A stretch of 61,254 bases of DNA, counting the filler, from Circinaria calcarea (lineage: Eukaryota): the NCBI GenBank assembly GCA_051942165.1. It is 7 parts of 7 records of this genome, joined end to end, with 100 filler letters (N's around TTAATTAATTAA, not from the genome) between each part and the next. Parts side by side here need not be neighbours in the genome. Positions count along the whole stretch, not along the records: positions 8,785 to 17,458 come from JAVECS010001074.1; 6 more parts are not named here. The stretch is one strand, 5' to 3'. Numbering within the stretch: position 1 is the first letter of the stretch; each line of letters starts with the position of its first letter. Of the stretch, positions 3,389 to 16,936 are shown one piece after another. Under the pieces are notes generated by a model. That model saw only the letters and a program-made list of their open reading frames with translations. It had not been told where the DNA came from and ran no database searches. The position numbers and the translations under genes were made by a program.

Positions 3389-5084
3389 TCAGGATGCCTC
3401 GGACCGAAGCGAGCTCGATTGACTCGAGGCTGTAGGAGTCGTAGGACGATTCACCGGTCGTATAGAGTTGCCCTGCTTGGCGGAGATTTTTGTTCCGTGT
3501 GCTGGGCTGGCTGAGCCCAAGCAAAAGCAAAATTCCTCCCGGTTCTCCCGGTCGCTTCTCTGGGCCAGCTTGCAGGCGTCGTAGTTGATGCCGATGATGA
3601 TGAAGGCGAGGACTCCTTGCAGGACGGCCCCTCCAGCGATCCCTAAGAAATAGAGATTCCAAGTCTCGGCTTTGACAATCTAACCGAGGTCGAGATCGAT
3701 GTAAGCATTCGCGACACCGCCGGGACCGAAGTAGGCTGACTAGGACTTGCAGCTGTTGTACCAACCTAATGAAGGGGGTTTAGTAGACTCGTCTTGGTTC
3801 AGATGTCGTACTGCCACAAGACTCACCGATGAATGGTAATAAGAAGAAGAGGATCACGAGGAAAGAAATCAATGTATCTTTTGCCCATACCCAGTGGAAA
3901 AGCCTTTTTCGATTCTGGATGCGACCGGCCATACACTCCTCAAGCACGAAATTGGTTATCCAGACAACGAGATAGGTGATCTCGGCGATGCACCGGCCAC
4001 CAAGACCAATGGTCGGGGTATTCCACGGCATCAGAAAGGAAATGCTGAATGCTATCAGAACGGACAAAAAGGCCAAAGCCAAAAGGAGTTTGTGGCGGCC
4101 GCTCTTGTATCCGGAGGAGAACTTGTGCTTTTGGTTGATGCGCCGACCAGATCGACGCCATAGAAGCATCTTCTGCGGCCGATAAGAATATATGCCACCG
4201 TTCCAGGGCTCAATCTCTTTCCGCCCCAAGCATTGCCAGCCAAACCGTGGATCATACCGATGCAGCTCAGTGCCCAGTGCGTGAAAGGGACTCTGAGCTG
4301 TCCACTGATGTGGCCAGCCTTCTGCTGCAGCGCTCAAAACGATTTCTAGAAGGAGAAAATAACACAACTCCCTCAGGGTTATCGTATGTGGCTGCGCGAA
4401 TCCTAGCCTGCTAGTGGTGTTTGTTTTGAATAGAGCCGTGAATGCTGCGCCCACGTACACGAGTACGGCAACGGTCGTACGGAGGATACTTCTAACCCGG
4501 GCGAGTGCTAGATCGCGACTCGCAGGTTTGATAGTACGAAAGATGTCGGTTCCATAAGGGCTTTGGACGAGCTCACATATCCTGTTGACCCGTTCCTCGA
4601 ACGTATCATGTCCGAGGTCCTCCAAACAGTAGCAGATGTTCGCTATATCGCGCTTTGCGTTGGCCAGCTCATCTCCCTTTAACCGGAGAACCCCAAGTTC
4701 AAGCGTATCGCAATGCTTCCTCAGTCGCCTTCCGAGATCCAATTTGCTGGCCAAACTGAAAATCGTGTCGATGGGGTTTGCGAACTGGTGAGCGAAGACG
4801 AACAATTTACGTCCAAAGGGCAACCGTAACAAGGTCGTCTCAGTGAAGTTCATGTTCGCAGCGAGTGCCAGGAACGGGATCACCCATGTGATGATTGCAT
4901 CAAGAGCATCGTAAAAACCATATAGCCCATATCCTTCTCCGCAGTATTGCTCGCATTGCTTCAGGGAAAGCTTGTACGAAAGGTCTATACCCGGATTCAT
5001 CTTCTTCAAGTCATCAATCGTGGCTTTACATTGAACGATGTCGAAGGCAGTAGGAGTCGCGTTTAATCGGAAGGACGCATTCAT
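3389..5084 (-). pseudogene. Multi-pass membrane protein of unknown function with two in-frame TAG codons in the last exon; intron 3766-3826
   Basis: Long hydrophobic ORF from ATG 5084; after splicing it reads GWYNSCKS*SAYFGPGG...DLG*IVKAETWNLYFLGIAGGAVLQGVLAFIII (stops at 3740-3742 and 3680-3682). Confidence 0.6.
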
Positions 5085-8146: not shown

Positions 8147-8684
<538 letters not shown>

Positions 8685-8784
8685 NNNNNNNNNNNNNNNN
8701 NNNNNNNNNNNNNNNNNNNNNNNNNNNNTTAATTAATTAANNNNNNNNNNNNNNNNNNNNNNNNNNNNNNNNNNNNNNNNNNNN
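8685..8784. other. Artificial contig linker
   Basis: 44 N + TTAATTAATTAA (stops in all six frames) + 44 N. Confidence 0.99.
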
Positions 8785-9553
8785 TGGCAGGGAAAAGACC
8801 AGCCAAGCCCCTTCTAAGTCGGAAGTCGAGGCTCAACGGGATTCGAATCCTGATCTGAAAGAGAGTATAGAGATTGGTCGGGATGACGAAAAGGAGCATC
8901 CGAATCGATGGCCAGATAAATTCGACCCTGAGGGGCAGAAGTTCAAGGAGGTGATGCAGGATTTCTTCTTGCAATGCAAGGAGATGCATCGTCTACTGAT
9001 GTCTGCCTTGGCGCTAGGAATGGGTCTACCTGAGACACATTTTGATGAGTTTGTGGTGCAAGGTGATAACACGCTGCGGTTGCTTCATTACCCGCCTGTA
9101 AAGAAGAGCACGTTCGAAAAGAACAAAGGCCAAGTAAGAGCGGGCGCACATACTGATTATGGAAGCGTAACATTTCTGTTCCAGGACGGGAGAGGTGGAC
9201 TCCAGGTCCCTGGACCTGGCGGCGGATGGTTGGATGTGAAACCGATTGAGGGGACTTGCATCGTCAATGCGGGAGACTTGCTTGCGAGGTGGAGTAATGA
9301 CTTGATCAAAAGCACAATGCATAGGGTTGTAGAACCACCGTCCAAGACGGAGGAGGAAGAGAAGATAGTCGGTGAGGACGACGCGGAAGATGAGTATCCG
9401 GCTAGATACTCAATCGCATACTTTTGCAATCCAGACTTCAATAAGTGGATTGAGGCATTACCAGGTACTTGGGAGAAAGAGAAGGGAGGAAAGCGATATG
9501 AGGGTGTCAACAGTGGAGACTATTTGCAGCAAAAGCTGGGTCTGACTTATTGA
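8785..9553 (+). CDS. 2-oxoglutarate/Fe(II) dioxygenase, thymine 7-hydroxylase-like, 5'-truncated
   Basis: GREK, PDLKESIEIGR, LRLLHYP, RAGAHTDYGS (HxD), STMHRV, RYSIAYF (RxS); strongly resembles fungal thymine dioxygenases as recalled. Confidence 0.85.
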
Positions 9554-9937: not shown

Positions 9938-10639
9938 TCAGAAGATTGTATACCCTCCCCACCAAAAGTATATAGCAACAGAAATCAAGCTGCCCAGAGC
10001 AAATGGCAGCCTCATCTCTATCACACTCCACACCCATAATGTACCTAAGGGTGGTGCCCTTTTCATGACGGCAAAGTAAGCCAGCTCATTGCTCGAATAG
10101 ATCAAGTAGCAGCCTGCGCCCATGCTTAAGCATAGGAACAGGAATTGGGTCCATAGGGCTGTTGAGCGCGAGTGCAACGTGTAGACCAGCGCAAGGAGGA
10201 TTGGAAACGTGATGAGGGTCCGTTGAACTATGAGATCCCAGCCAATTGCTTGACGGTACTGGTGGTGTACGAGGACGTCCAGCGTGAAGTGGAGCATTGA
10301 AAGAGTCAGCGTAAAGAATAGAGCTTGACCAAAGGGGCCAATAGGGTCATCGGTAAATTGGGAGTCTCCTTCAGGAGAGATTTCAGTTAGGGTGCCATCT
10401 GGGTTTATTTGGGTGGTGCTAATGGATGGTGGTGAAGAGAAACCTGTATCTGCGTTGCCGAAAGGTTCGCCATGCTGGAGTTGGGCCTGTCGCTCCGCAG
10501 CGATCTCAAACAGAGTCTTGGATTTGGGCGTCCGTCGTGAGGGTTGGGAGAGAGGAATCTCGGAGGATTTGGTAATCGAACCTTTCAGACCTGCGGCTCG
10601 ACGTTCTTTACGGTTTCGAGGTTCTCCGGGACTGTTCAT
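9938..10639 (-). CDS. Conserved fungal membrane protein of unknown function, about 4 TM segments
   Basis: Single-exon 233-aa ORF; LHFTLDVLVHHQY and AVMKRAPPLGTLWVWSVIE motifs; hydrophobic C-terminal half. Confidence 0.8.
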   Translation of the reverse strand: MNSPGEPRNRKERRAAGLKGSITKSSEIPLSQPSRRTPKSKTLFEIAAERQAQLQHGEPFGNADTGFSSPPSISTTQINPDGTLTEISPEGDSQFTDDPIGPFGQALFFTLTLSMLHFTLDVLVHHQYRQAIGWDLIVQRTLITFPILLALVYTLHSRSTALWTQFLFLCLSMGAGCYLIYSSNELAYFAVMKRAPPLGTLWVWSVIEMRLPFALGSLISVAIYFWWGGYTIF

Positions 10640-10869
10640 TGTAGACTACCAAACCTGTTTGTATATGTAGAGACAAATAGGGTCCGGTGGTGGCCAAGGG
10701 CATCTTGAGAGACTGAGCTTATACTGCCATGGGCCTAGCTTAGCCCTGGCCATACCTAGACTAGCGCCGATATTAGCTGCAGGAACAGCCAAGATTTCCC
10801 CGGATTTTCAACGTCTTGACCATTAAACTATAATTTGGATATTTGGTGTCAGAGGGCATCAGTTGCAAA

Positions 10870-11849
10870 ATGCAACTGTACCTCGCTCTTGCAATCCCAA
10901 TCGTACTTGCAACATGCTGGCTGTACACGGCGCACATAGCTCGAACCTCCTTCCCGCGCCTGAGCAACAAGCGCATCTGTCTCTTGATCGCACATCCCGA
11001 CGATGAAGCCATGTTCTTTGCCCCAACGATTCTCGCCTTGACTGATCAAGATCTGGGAAATCATGTCAAAATACTCTGTTTGAGCAGTGGTGAGCTCTGT
11101 TCCACCCGAGAGAGTCGTGTTTGCAGATTTCCTCGATTGTGGCAGCTTAGAAACTGACGAGAGTCTGGGCGACAGGGGACGCAGAAGGCATTGGCCATGT
11201 TCGTAAACGGGAGCTCATACGTTCCGCTTCCATGCTCGGGCTGCGCTCCTCTGATGACGTCTTCATTCTTGACGACCCTTCTTTTCCAGACAGTATGACC
11301 GCCACTTGGGATCCTGTAAAGATTGCCAATGTACTCAAATCTGCCTTTACCCCTGTGGTGGCAAAGCCACACTCAAAGAAGCAAGTGAGGGGTCCAAATG
11401 AAGACGGTGCGCCTGTAGCAACCATCGATATACTCATCACCTTCGACCGGCAAGGCATCTCTGGTCATCCCAATCACATTTCACTCTACCACGGTGCTCT
11501 TACGTGGCTAAGGGAAATGATGAATGGGAAATCGGCTTGGGAGCAGCCGGTCACACTCTACACACTCTCTTCAACCAATATACTCCGCAAGTATATCTCC
11601 ACCCTCGATGCACCATTAACATTAATCAAATGCGTATTTGGAGGAAATTGGGCTGTGCGGGACTCTAAGGCAGGAGGTGGTACAGGATCAAGAAGCTTAA
11701 TGTACATTAGTGATATTGGAACCTATAGACAAGCACAATTGGCAATGACAAACGCCCATAAAAGCCAGATGAGGTGGTTCCGATGGGGCTGGATAGGGAT
11801 AGGGAGGTATATGGTCATCAACGACCTGACGAAGCAGGGGATCCGATGA
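10870..11849 (+). CDS. GPI12: N-acetylglucosaminyl-phosphatidylinositol de-N-acetylase (PIG-L); intron 11090-11175
   Basis: N-terminal TM, IAHPDDE, ITFD..GISGHPNH, AHKSQMRWFRW, SR/GRYMVINDL-type end. Confidence 0.93.
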
Positions 11850-12653
11850 GGAATATACCTGACGGAATAACCATCAGGCTTTATTGGGACCGCACGGTAG
11901 CTCACGATTAGATTTCCACAGGATCAGGATCAAACGCCGTCAGCCACCTACAAGAGCTCCCGTATAATGAACGATTATACAATTCCTAAGCCTCCTGCAA
12001 TTACTCTATAACCTCTCAAACTCAAAACAACCTTATTTACGAACGAGGTCATGACATTGGTAGTCCTACAAACGCTTATATGTAAGGCTAATATCCTCTT
12101 TTTCTGGATTCTCGTAACACCTACCAACACCCAAAATCCTTCAGCACCGTGCCCGATCAGTCGGTGATGAACTTACCGCAGCTCAACTGTGAGTGTTTGG
12201 ATTTAACAGGTGAAATGGCACAAGGCACGATTGTCGTGGACGATGCCTCGTGAATTCTATGAGAGCTTCCATCGTCCCTAGAGCACCCAGGTAGTCTGAA
12301 CCATGCGTTCCTTGAGCCTCGGCTCGCAATGGGACGAGTCTCAGAATGAATGGCTTACAACGCCGGAGCGATGATTGGCATAGGTCAAGAGCACTCACGA
12401 AGCTGCTGGTGAGTCAGCGCCAAGCACAGATATTGGAGAAGGCGTCTGCGTGATACTCCCATCTCTGGTATCAGCCACTCTGTGTTACTCACCTCAATTT
12501 GCGTGTACCTGACCTATGTGCAACTCATCTGTTCTTTCCTTCCTATCATCACCAAGATCAACAGAATACGATCATACTCCCGCTTTCACATGATCAACTG
12601 CAACCAATATCAGCAGCCTCAAGTATCAGATTTTAGCCACTCAGCAATGACGA

Positions 12654-12887
12654 ATGCCTCAATTTGACTGGAAATGCCATGAGTGCGCTAAGATAAACTA
12701 TCCCAGCGACGAGTTTTGCTGGGGCTGTTTGCATTTCTTTTGTTTTAGCTGCCACTACATGGGCCCGCAACGAAATCGGAACCAAGATAGGTTCGTCAGC
12801 ACAGAGTACAGTCATAACGAGGGGCAGGTTACTAACATATCCCTCAACTATCATCAGTCAGCACACACACGAGCTCGTGGCTTCTAA
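12654..12887 (+). CDS. Putative micro-protein with extended RanBP2-like zinc finger
   Basis: W-x-C-x2-C-x3-N-x6-C-x2-C-x-H-x2-C-x2-C; same spacing in neighbouring copy at 13004. Confidence 0.6.
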   Translation: MPQFDWKCHECAKINYPSDEFCWGCLHFFCFSCHYMGPQRNRNQDRFVSTEYSHNEGQVTNISLNYHQSAHTRARGF

Positions 12888-13003
12888 GTCCTTTACCTGT
12901 TTTACTGTTCTCCCCCATACTCTACGAATCCCAACCCATCCCTCGACCTCTCTATCAACGTCTAGCGCAGAGACTTCAAGTAACAGCTTCAATACAGCTC
13001 AAG

Positions 13004-13150
13004 ATGAACTCCCCACAATTTAACTGAAAATGTCACGCCTGCTCGGCCCCAAATCACCAGGATGCAGCTCGTTGCACAGAGTGTAGTCATAGGTTCTGCT
13101 ACCGTTGCCAATACCTCGAACTAAGGCAAGCAGCAGCTAGAGAATTATAA
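13004..13150 (+). pseudogene. Paralogous zinc-finger micro-ORF with TGA (13025-13027) at the Trp position
   Basis: MNSPQFN*KCHACSAPNHQDAARCTECSHRFCYRCQYLELRQAAAREL; aligns without gaps to the 12654 ORF. Confidence 0.6.
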
Positions 13151-14942: not shown

Positions 14943-16936
14943 ATGGCGCTTCTATCGTGGCTTCTATTGTGTTACAACACGGTATTGGTGGTAGCTCCAC
15001 CTTCAGCTATAGGATTGAATTCCACCAGTGGTGAGGAATTGATCTACCGTAATTAGCTAGCAAGACTGACTGACCAAAACTACAGTGAACCAAACTGGTT
15101 TAACGTCGTCACTATCTACTGCGCCTTCAGCTATGAATTTAAGTGTTTCAAGTGGTATGTCTGATGATTTGCCGTATTGGTTGCGAAATACATTGATAAA
15201 TCTAGAAGAAAGACAGAGAGGCGCAGCAACAATTGCGAATATAACAGAGGCAGCTAATCTCTATTTCAATTCTTCGTTTCGCACATTTCACGCCAACCTT
15301 TCTAGTTTCTGCATTTCCAATTTGATCATGAATTACAGCAAGTGGGCCAACTGGCCAATTATCCCCTCCCCGCCATGTTGTGCTGATTGTACGATTATTG
15401 TACGCAGCGCTCAAGTGGCCCATTGGCCTACACCAGCGCCTCCGCTTAACTTATCAACCATAATTGGTTCAAGTGGGTTTGTGTTGTATGTATCTTTTGT
15501 CTTGCGTGTTATTTAGTGCTAAGAACTACTTCAGTACATCTCCATCGGCATACATTATCTATTAAAGTATGGAGGCATACAATCTGTGCGGTGCTGTTGG
15601 CTCCAGTCTTAAAGTGGACATTACTCAACCTTACAGGCCAGAGGAACTGTCAACCCTAGGCTACAATCCTTGCTCGGAGGATGATGATGGTAATCTTCGC
15701 TGCCCACATAAGTATACCATGTTTAACTTCGCCGACCTCAAAAGCTGTTCATTTCCCTATCCTGGTGCCGGTGATTCTCGCCGCTGCCTTCCCTTCATAG
15801 CATTCAGCTCAATTGGGTTCAATCCCGAAACCCTCCACCACGAATGGGCCAACTGCAAATATGAACCCTTTGATTGGATACAGGATCCACCCTATGCTCT
15901 GACCTCAGTCGGTGCGCTCGATGCCCTAAGCATCACACTCCCGACTCTGTCTCAAACCAGATCTGCAACTGCTGGAGCTGTTCCTCCAGCGTTCCCTACA
16001 GAAACGGCCCCACCAGAGGATCCTCCGATTTTAACCCGAACTCGAGTCAGCGCCATGGTAGGAAACCTACCTACAGAATCTCTATCCTCAGCGCATGATC
16101 CTTCGTCCCAGGGTGCCGATTCTTTGGTTTCAAAGATCGAAGACCCTAGTATCCATTCCAAGGCAGCGGAAAGCCACGCCGACCTTCCACCCACTTCAGG
16201 CCTACAAACGGCGTACACGGAAGACGCACCAAGACATGACGGCGTAACGAGAGGAGGGCAAATTGTAGCACCAAGCGGCAGTTCGATATCGAGCACACAA
16301 AACCCAGCAGCGACAAGATTCAACTCCTCACTCTCTATCCCCCTGTCCTCAAGTACACTGCCACTGGAGACATTTACGCTGCATCTTCCAAAAATCCCAA
16401 CAGCCTCACCCGCTTCATCCGGCAATCCCGACATCACCTTCACCATCGGCACAGAAGTCCTCACCTATGCCACAGACGCCATTATCATCGGTCAAGCAAC
16501 AGTGACGCGCAACGCTCCAGCACTCACCTCAAAGGGATACGTTGTCTCACTCGGTAGCTCCGACGTAGTAGTCGTGATTGGCGGTTCTGGGATCACACCA
16601 TTTGCCACCTCCAAGGGCGCGTCCGCCAACACCTCATCATCAGCAGGAGGTGAGGCTAGACTTTCCTCCGAGCCCACAACCACCACACCAGCCCGGACAA
16701 ACGATCTAGCTTGGTTCATCATGTCCGGACTCGAAGGCATGGACCATGGTCCGGTATCTCCTTCCCACCTCACCTCTACGACACTTGGGATAACCAGCAA
16801 CATCTCTGCATCCGGAAACAGCAGTTTTCCAATCGTACCGTTTCCCGGCGCGGCTGACGGGCGGAGAGTAGTTCATGCTGGAGTCAGGCTCGTGGCTTTG
16901 GGGAGTTGGATCTGGTGGTCTGGAGGTGGGGTGTAA
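14943..16936 (+). pseudogene. Secreted, possibly GPI-anchored Cys-rich + Ser/Thr-rich cell-surface protein with an in-frame TAA at 15563-15565; introns 15031-15085 and 15486-15534
   Basis: Signal peptide exon; PPCCADCTI..HWPTP..GFVFTSPSAYIIY*SMEAYNLCGAVG; long S/T/P-rich stalk; hydrophobic C-terminus. Confidence 0.65.

Follow-up and report, generated by a model that had tools for sequence, protein, structure and literature searches.

In the lichen-type fungus Circinaria calcarea, part of a small gene, from its intron over leader and start codon through the zinc module, underwent a 382-nt head-to-tail tandem duplication, and the second copy carries an in-frame TGA at a conserved Trp position. 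The first copy, ORF1, is an intact gene with a probable orthologue, P0279. The second copy, ORF2, appears to have been under selection for most of the time since the two species split, judging from the bias of its changes among codon positions, from neutral simulations and from the key residues kept in the window copy, and TGG is present at the interrupted codon in neither species. The window is the whole stretch of 61,254 nucleotides, filler included, that was analysed (assembly GCA_051942165.1), and all positions count along it. Separate contigs are joined in it: C1073 ends at 8684, an N gap occupies 8685-8784, and C1074 runs from 8785. The features of the locus are:

~8786-9553, plus strand: neighbouring 2OG-Fe(II) oxygenase gene (Pfam search)
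9938-10645, minus strand: DUF7719 gene, divergent from PIG-L (Pfam search)
10870-11849, plus strand: PIG-L (GlcNAc-PI de-N-acetylase) gene, a neighbour used as marker, with two exons and TGA as its stop (Pfam PF02585, homologues, tblastn without frameshift)
12409-12474, plus strand: 66-nt candidate intron (GTGAGT...CAG) within the 5' leader of unit 1, putatively spliced, homologous to the intron of unit 2
12475-12653, plus strand: pyrimidine-rich leader of unit 1, homologous to 12858-13003 (score reached in 3 of 400 shuffles)
12647-12667, plus strand: out-of-frame uORF of 6 codons that overlaps the ORF1 start, its ATG in register with the ORF2 ATG
12654-12790, plus strand: ORF1 coding exon, an intact zinc module and a short tail (36 of 46 residues identical to P0279, all ligands kept; model pLDDT 84)
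12791-12857, plus strand: intron candidate of unit 2 (GTTCGT, branch TACTAAC at 12830, CAG; 67 nt), directly 3' of the ORF1 tail
12858-13023, plus strand: leader of unit 2 and, once spliced, also a weakly conserved Ser/Thr/Pro-rich tail of ORF1 ending at TAA 13021-13023
13004-13150, plus strand: ORF2, the second zinc module, with eight putative ligands and the Asn intact, interrupted by TGA
13025-13027, plus strand: in-frame TGA at the conserved Trp position (ORF2 codon 8); the codon in the source of P0279 is forced to T-N-A
15566-16936, plus strand: Ser/Thr-rich frame of 456 codons, no Pfam match

ORF1 starts at ATG 12654, with PQF from 12657 and the zinc module, Trp6 to Cys33, at 12669-12752. 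Without splicing it ends at TAA 12885-12887 (77 aa); splicing to the first AG (12857) extends it to TAA 13021-13023, and splicing to the second AG (12861) joins it to the ORF2 frame as far as the TGA. ORF2 starts at ATG 13004, with PQF from 13013, and has 48 codons up to the final stop, TAA 13148-13150. The first-pass annotation had described the two peptides as a tandem pair sharing Cys, Asn, His and spacing, the second one being stopped at the Trp codon. Both were found as described, as was the TGA, and the six Cys, the Asn and the His are indeed shared, together with an additional His after the first Cys that had been left uncounted. Of the 35 codons that align between the ORFs, 15 encode an identical residue, namely the six Cys, both His and the Asn as well as P, Q, F, K, F and Y, and DNA mismatches over these 35 codons number 12, 13 and 23 at codon positions 1, 2 and 3. 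The alignment of the module DNA reached a z of 7.7, equalled by none of 400 shuffles, and the two ORFs are the only matches to C-x2-C-x-H-x2-C-x2-C in the six frames of the window.

The homology extends from donor to ATG: segments 12409-12646 and 12791-13003 align with a score of 40, the maximum being 14.5 in 1177 control segments, and none of 400 shuffles scored as well. Over the 100 bases 5' of the donors the two units show no relation (321 of 400 shuffles do equally well), nor are the ORF1 and ORF2 tails significantly alike (139 of 400 shuffles as good). The duplicated unit thus comprises intron, leader, ATG and module. The two had been taken for independent genes, which does not hold, since intron and leader were duplicated and nothing 5' of the donor was; the donor of unit 2 lies 30 bases 3' of module 1, and the promoter was not copied. 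Past the donor hexamer, 11 of 15 bases match between the introns (p 1.7e-4); none of 400 shuffles aligned as well as the whole introns, and 7 of 400 did for the core minus the splice ends. At an offset of 357, 19 of 36 bases match just upstream of the ATGs at 12647 and 13004 (shuffle p 0.0005). The ATG that matches the ORF2 start register is the one at 12647, which is now out of frame and 7 bases 5' of the ORF1 start. A reading of ORF1 as a frameshifted pseudogene starting at 12647 was rejected: the gene call of the relative begins with the Met that corresponds to 12654, and the module is kept in it. Elsewhere in the C. calcarea genome, neither another DNA copy of the locus nor a closer paralogue was found.

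The zinc module shares its core with the RanBP2/NZF finger (PF00641; TAB2, Npl4, RBM5, Nup153, ZRANB2), whose signature is given as W-X-C-X(2,4)-C-X3-N-X6-C-X2-C in passages of PMC12383448 and PMC7154859. ORF1 and P0279 carry this core signature; ORF2 carries it only if its TGA stands for Trp. In the model of ORF1, residues ~3-30 overlay the two-hairpin Cys4 ribbons of RanBP2/NZF fingers with an rmsd of 0.5-0.9 Å over 25-28 residues in the closest rows, which are weak matches with E above 0.1, and the best VIA Z, 3.8, was with the TAB2 NZF (all Z below 4 and weak). The curated cut-off of PF00641 (27 bits) was not reached by any of the three: ORF1 and ORF2 gave no match and P0279 gave 12.9 bits. 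The assignment to the RanBP2/NZF class that had been made at first thus stands as regards core signature and, tentatively and with weak scores, predicted fold, and not at the level of the Pfam family. The architecture is not that of four Cys only: compared with RanBP2/NZF fingers, three more conserved ligand-type residues follow Cys4 in an extra x-H-x2-C-x2-C knuckle, a conserved His or Cys follows Cys1, and the preceding R/K-x-G is missing.

Ubiquitin-binding NZF fingers have a Thr-Phe pair right after Cys2, and ssRNA binding of the ZRANB2 type involves a base-contacting aromatic and Arg-Arg residues after the Asn. The pair is absent from the modules studied here (AK in ORF1, ST in P0279, SA in ORF2), and by inspection, neither the aromatic nor the Arg-Arg residues are present in ORF1, ORF2 or P0279. 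The Thr-Phe pair is described as critical for NZF ubiquitin binding in a passage of PMC12383448. The binding of RNA or ubiquitin that had been proposed is therefore not supported, with the pair absent and PF00641 not reached. ORF1 and ORF2 are not filed as RanBP2/NZF members, as they fail the Pfam cut-off, the four-Cys-only architecture and the ubiquitin-binding pair. Sequence-profile comparison with the PDB gave the first half of FYVE domains (Hrs, RUFY1) as best matches, with E 0.011-0.02 and spanning all six Cys. The window module does not have the last two Cys and the basic patch of FYVE; FYVE was absent among the fold matches listed, where RanBP2-type ribbons were found instead, which excludes nothing. 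One more probable ligand, the eighth, is the His that directly follows the first Cys, and the suggested second metal site at the extra H-x2-C-x2-C is a likely one. Each module quite probably binds two zinc ions, the first in a Cys4 ribbon like that of RanBP2 and the second through His(after Cys1)-His-Cys-Cys, and would be a small protein-docking module rather than a classical binder of ubiquitin or ssRNA.

ORF1 and ORF2 are members of a large, unnamed and unstudied ascomycete family of eight-ligand modules, near PF26652. The family pattern C-[HC]-x-C-x(9-13)-C-x2-C-x-H-x2-C-x2-C is found in ORF1, ORF2 and P0279. A profile of 16 modules retrieved 509 proteins at E up to 0.001; in the best 150 of these, the strict family regex matches 330 of 386 modules, the exact RanBP2 spacing occurs in just 2 of 386, and the best E for the ORF2 module is 3e-8. 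Two or more motif copies are present in 139 of the best 150 proteins, which is not a frequency because the ranking favours multi-module proteins. In the 381 modules of these 150 proteins that were parsed (5 of 386 were not), the residue after the first Cys is His in 300, Cys in 33, Glu in 22 and Asp in 20, counts that are not independent since the parser preferred C/H and many modules are orthologues; its conservation points to eight ligands and two zinc ions. The Trp position is occupied in the same 381 modules by R (176), W (133), Y (33), F (11) and H (11), by Ser once and by Leu never.

In the C. calcarea genome, the 35-place DNA pattern of C-x2-C-x-H-x2-C-x2-C gave 38 matches, against 4 for the reversed control; by eye, the 38 divide into 25 family-like modules, 3 zinc domains of other kinds and 10 spurious matches. 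The homologue check proposed in the first-pass annotation thus yielded, by pattern search and by the 509 profile matches, homologues with conserved Cys spacing. The family is not special to this locus, as had been supposed: it is large, widespread in ascomycetes and often multi-module. The expectation that annotation misses such genes was supported. Neither the 39 stretches of prokaryote genomes nor the 2 of viral contigs that were tested contained a relative of ORF1. In the Atlas, ORF1 residues 1-40 score 0.83-0.86 to Ascomycota hypothetical proteins of 54-58 aa, and the family member P0162 scores 0.79 to the PF26652 (Zn_ribbon_double) cluster, both of which, being below 0.9, are leads only; P0162 also scores 0.94 to a 110-member Ascomycota cluster auto-named 'RanBP2-type domain-containing protein'. 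By these leads, PF26652 and the auto-named RanBP2-type clusters belong to the same module class. A literature search found no paper on PF26652 or on fungal or Ascomycota double zinc ribbons.

Family genes occur in this genome in one-, two- and three-module forms. Conserved two- and three-module genes sit on contigs C534 and C1814, whereas the window pair is a local duplication. Three two-module zinc-ribbon genes lie within ~7.5 kb on the minus strand of C534 (G000; ~3400-4950 and 10290-10810; L039, L040). The N-terminal module of two of them is a bare four-Cys ribbon without the extra knuckle, and one has a Met in good start context just 5' of its second module. In two-module genes on C1027 (2270-2620) and C1097 (2699-3030; L019, L023), modules are apparently split by a phase-0 intron right after the first Cys, and apparent stops are acceptor AGs. 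Two near-identical pairs of family genes on small contigs, C2936/C3975 (L034, L038) and C3418/C3651 (L036, L037), may be recent duplicates, haplotypes or the result of a mixed assembly. A pattern scan of metagenome contigs gave one prokaryote-like match and no fungal match; this match (L045:452-573) is an ORF without in-frame start that has the identical spacing W-x-C-H-x-C-x3-N-x6-C-x2-C-x-H-x-F-C-x2-C.

P0279 (147 aa, an unspliced gene call) was the sole match among 5 candidates in the homologue search; a search with ORF2 only gave zero candidates. Past the module, the P0279 sequence crosses the intron and then follows the -1 frame over 30 ORF2 codons without gaps. The donor, branch and first acceptor of the unit 2 intron fit this peptide, and by eye the intron there would be 66 nt. 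P0279 comes from an 8920-bp ENA contig and the PIG-L protein P0003 (82% identical) from a contig that is also 8920 bp, so that the two are likely to lie on one contig, hence in synteny with the window locus. The best named homologues of the PIG-L neighbour are those of Xylographa and Lambiella (~61%), which suggests that the host is a lichen-type Lecanoromycete. The off-frame P0279 peptide fixes the third and first ORF2 codon positions of this one relative, seen via its protein. At the Trp codon, a Leu-Asn pair in P0279 forces T-N-A in the relative, which is a stop, Leu or Ser and never Trp. The fewest-change reading is TGA, with TTA or TCA possible because the middle base is not observable from P0279. 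The codon that follows the stop, Lys in the window, encodes Ile or Thr in the relative.

Over the 30 visible codons, the forced ORF2 changes between window and relative fall 11 times on the third, 3 times on the first and once on the second position (binomial p 0.029, Fisher p 0.015), and no ligand change is forced. By a fewest-change count, 9 ORF2 changes are purely synonymous, 3 of them upstream of the stop and 4 at Cys/His ligand codons. Leader changes between window and relative show no preference for a codon position (23 vs 18 of 55 codons), and first-position changes amount to 3 of 29 in ORF2 versus 18 of 55 in the leader (p 0.02). When neutral evolution was simulated under the condition that the frame stay free of stops, the ORF2 bias arose with a probability of 0.006-0.014, and the bias together with six kept key residues with a probability of 0.0003-0.002. 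A stricter count, minus two changes needed to open the frame of the relative, gives 9 vs 3 (p 0.073). For window ORF2 alone, keeping nine key residues and no second stop has a p of 0.024-0.006 at a drift of 0.15-0.2 per site. The five forced amino-acid changes in ORF2 occurred on both lineages (2, 2 and 1 unassigned, by eye with ORF1 as outgroup). The first-pass annotation had spoken of past selection on a micro-protein family; selection is upheld, but it would not be past only, since the stop looks older than the split and the signal of selection continues after it.

The explanation proposed here, which falls somewhat short of an even chance, is an old TGG to TGA change in copy 2, before C. 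calcarea and the relative split, with the copy still made in small or stage-limited amounts and its UGA decoded as Trp. ORF2 would be translated from its own ATG, for which an mRNA starting inside ORF1, skipping of the ORF1 exon, or reinitiation after the uORF at 12647 are candidate routes, and the stop would serve to limit the dosage of the duplicate. Near-cognate readthrough would be somewhat likelier than A-to-I editing. A little more tentatively, the whole ORF2 product would hang on UGA-to-Trp recoding at codon 8. This would come about by efficient readthrough independent of context, or by an undescribed type of A-to-I editing that acts on UGA in a class other than Sordariomycetes and Pezizomycetes, and it would switch, by dosage or by stage, a duplicate that has no promoter of its own and lies in the transcription unit of its paralogue. 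Counted in favour of recoding were the bias tests, the fewest-change TGA in the relative, the intact ligands of the window copy and the leakiness of UGA; counted against it were the unseen base, the single relative, the p of 0.073, the absence of a readthrough motif, the restriction of known editing to UAG, and the lack of a duplicated promoter for ORF2, with weak initiation combined with weak readthrough giving very little protein.

In premature-stop-correction A-to-I editing of Sordariomycetes (PUK1, AMD1, FgRID), as in ORF2, an in-frame stop takes the place of a Trp codon while the rest of the frame is conserved; the targets there are UAG to UGG with U at -1, whereas the ORF2 stop is UGA with G at -1. 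Passages of PMC11156358, 10.1101/059725 and PMC13123824 describe known fungal A-to-I editing as preferring U at -1 and as repairing UAG, not UGA, and count UAA-to-UGA editing as stop-retaining. According to parts of PMC11156358 and PMC13123824, editing was not found in Aspergillus or Botrytis, and PMC11156358 treats it as an open question in which further classes of fungi, apart from Sordariomycetes and Pezizomycetes, mRNA is edited. For Lecanoromycetes, the literature search found no report of editing, and PMC13199489 does not report any in its available portion. No hairpin was found at the stop, the A that editing would target never fell in a hairpin loop and no fold was better than those of shuffles; among the minimum-energy folds this A is unpaired in 3 of 5, among the centroids in all 5.

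Pseudo-pseudogenes are stop-bearing genes kept under selection, and in a study of fungal readthrough UGA-CUA is reportedly the readthrough context. ORF2 would resemble both in having a leaky UGA read as Trp and a stop-bearing gene kept under selection; its downstream context, in contrast, is UGA-A and not UGA-C or UGA-CUA, and with its stop placed at codon 8, readthrough would be needed for the entire protein. UGA is presented as the leakiest stop and the one most often read as Trp in a passage of PMC4615788. General recoding is not indicated, since a stop is found at the Trp position in 1 of the 25 family-like modules in this genome and PIG-L ends in TGA. Five C-5 methyltransferase matches in the genome contained no in-frame TAG; one contained a TAA. 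As to a UGA suppressor tRNA, the tRNA(TCA) genes found lie in mitochondrial-type clusters of 30-32% GC, and there was no nuclear tRNA-Trp or nuclear suppressor among 51 tRNA matches (63 of 1127 candidates scored, a partial set). Splicing around the TGA was rejected, with no AG from the stop to the first Cys and a nearby branch-like word not kept in the relative, as was bypass by frameshift, since the -1 frame of the window meets a stop at 13021. Contigs C956 and C2797 (L052, L049, L068) each bear a separate AT-rich tRNA cluster of mitochondrial type that includes a tRNA(TCA), and the assembly may hold two mitochondrial genomes. An ARAGORN match with anticodon TTA (L084:120-213, G000:C3162) is probably an intron-bearing tRNA that was misparsed.

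The strongest alternative, itself rather unlikely, is that copy 2 stayed functional in the two lineages through most of the period since their split and was then lost in each by an independent TGG to TGA change, leaving a young pseudogene in both. Such a change is a single transition and needs no unusual mechanism, and recent loss (0.03-0.05 substitutions per site) leaves the key residues of window ORF2, ligands included, intact with a p of 0.49-0.30; the Lys adjacent to the stop has changed in the relative, and no recoding signal was found. The same codon must, however, have been hit in the same way, late, in two lineages, and a second stop or indel is absent from window ORF2 and not forced in the 30 visible codons of the relative. 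A stop confined to the window lineage and of recent date, the gene of the relative being functional with Leu (TTA) or Ser (TCA) at this codon, is clearly improbable. P0279 allows both residues, and the Trp position varies across the wider family; on the other hand, Ser and Leu are nearly absent from that position in the family counts, at least three changes at one codon are needed instead of one, and a search for proteins of 26-84 residues with three words in common with ORF2 found none, though a gene call that overlaps another would have been suppressed.

An old pseudogene, with a stop that predates the split and an ORF2 that has drifted since, is the simplest account of the shared stop, and the stricter count reaches just p 0.073. 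The joint neutral probability of bias and kept residues, the nine key residues intact in the window copy and the leader without such a bias make it very unlikely. The two modules could also belong to one fused gene, in which splicing of intron 2 to the second AG, or a frameshift, joins module 1, linker and module 2. Two-module proteins with a spacing of 46-150 residues are common in the family, acceptor 12861 gives an open in-frame join up to the TGA, and neither leader has a stop in the module frame (by shuffling, chance 0.10 and 0.15). This is nevertheless highly improbable: by eye, the second AG is not kept in the relative, which has a His codon there, the first AG leads to a different frame in both species, the linker shows no codon bias, and the TGA would still block module 2. 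An error of assembly or sequencing at 13027 is the least credible explanation, as TGG is impossible in the relative too and PIG-L has no frameshift, although the assembly is fragmented (5512 contigs). Taken together, the readings in which ORF2 is now dead have about an even chance and slightly outweigh the recoding reading; these odds are a matter of judgement and hinge on a low and uncertain prior for recoding.

The new element here is a probably shared stop inside a frame that kept evolving as genes do. A stop shared between species inside a selected frame would offer a one-base, directly testable case in lichen fungi, at a codon, UGA, of a type not repaired by the known editing machinery; if ORF2 is a young pseudogene, it would be an ordinary family member only. 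The locus shows a widespread, unstudied two-zinc module multiplying by duplication at an intron.
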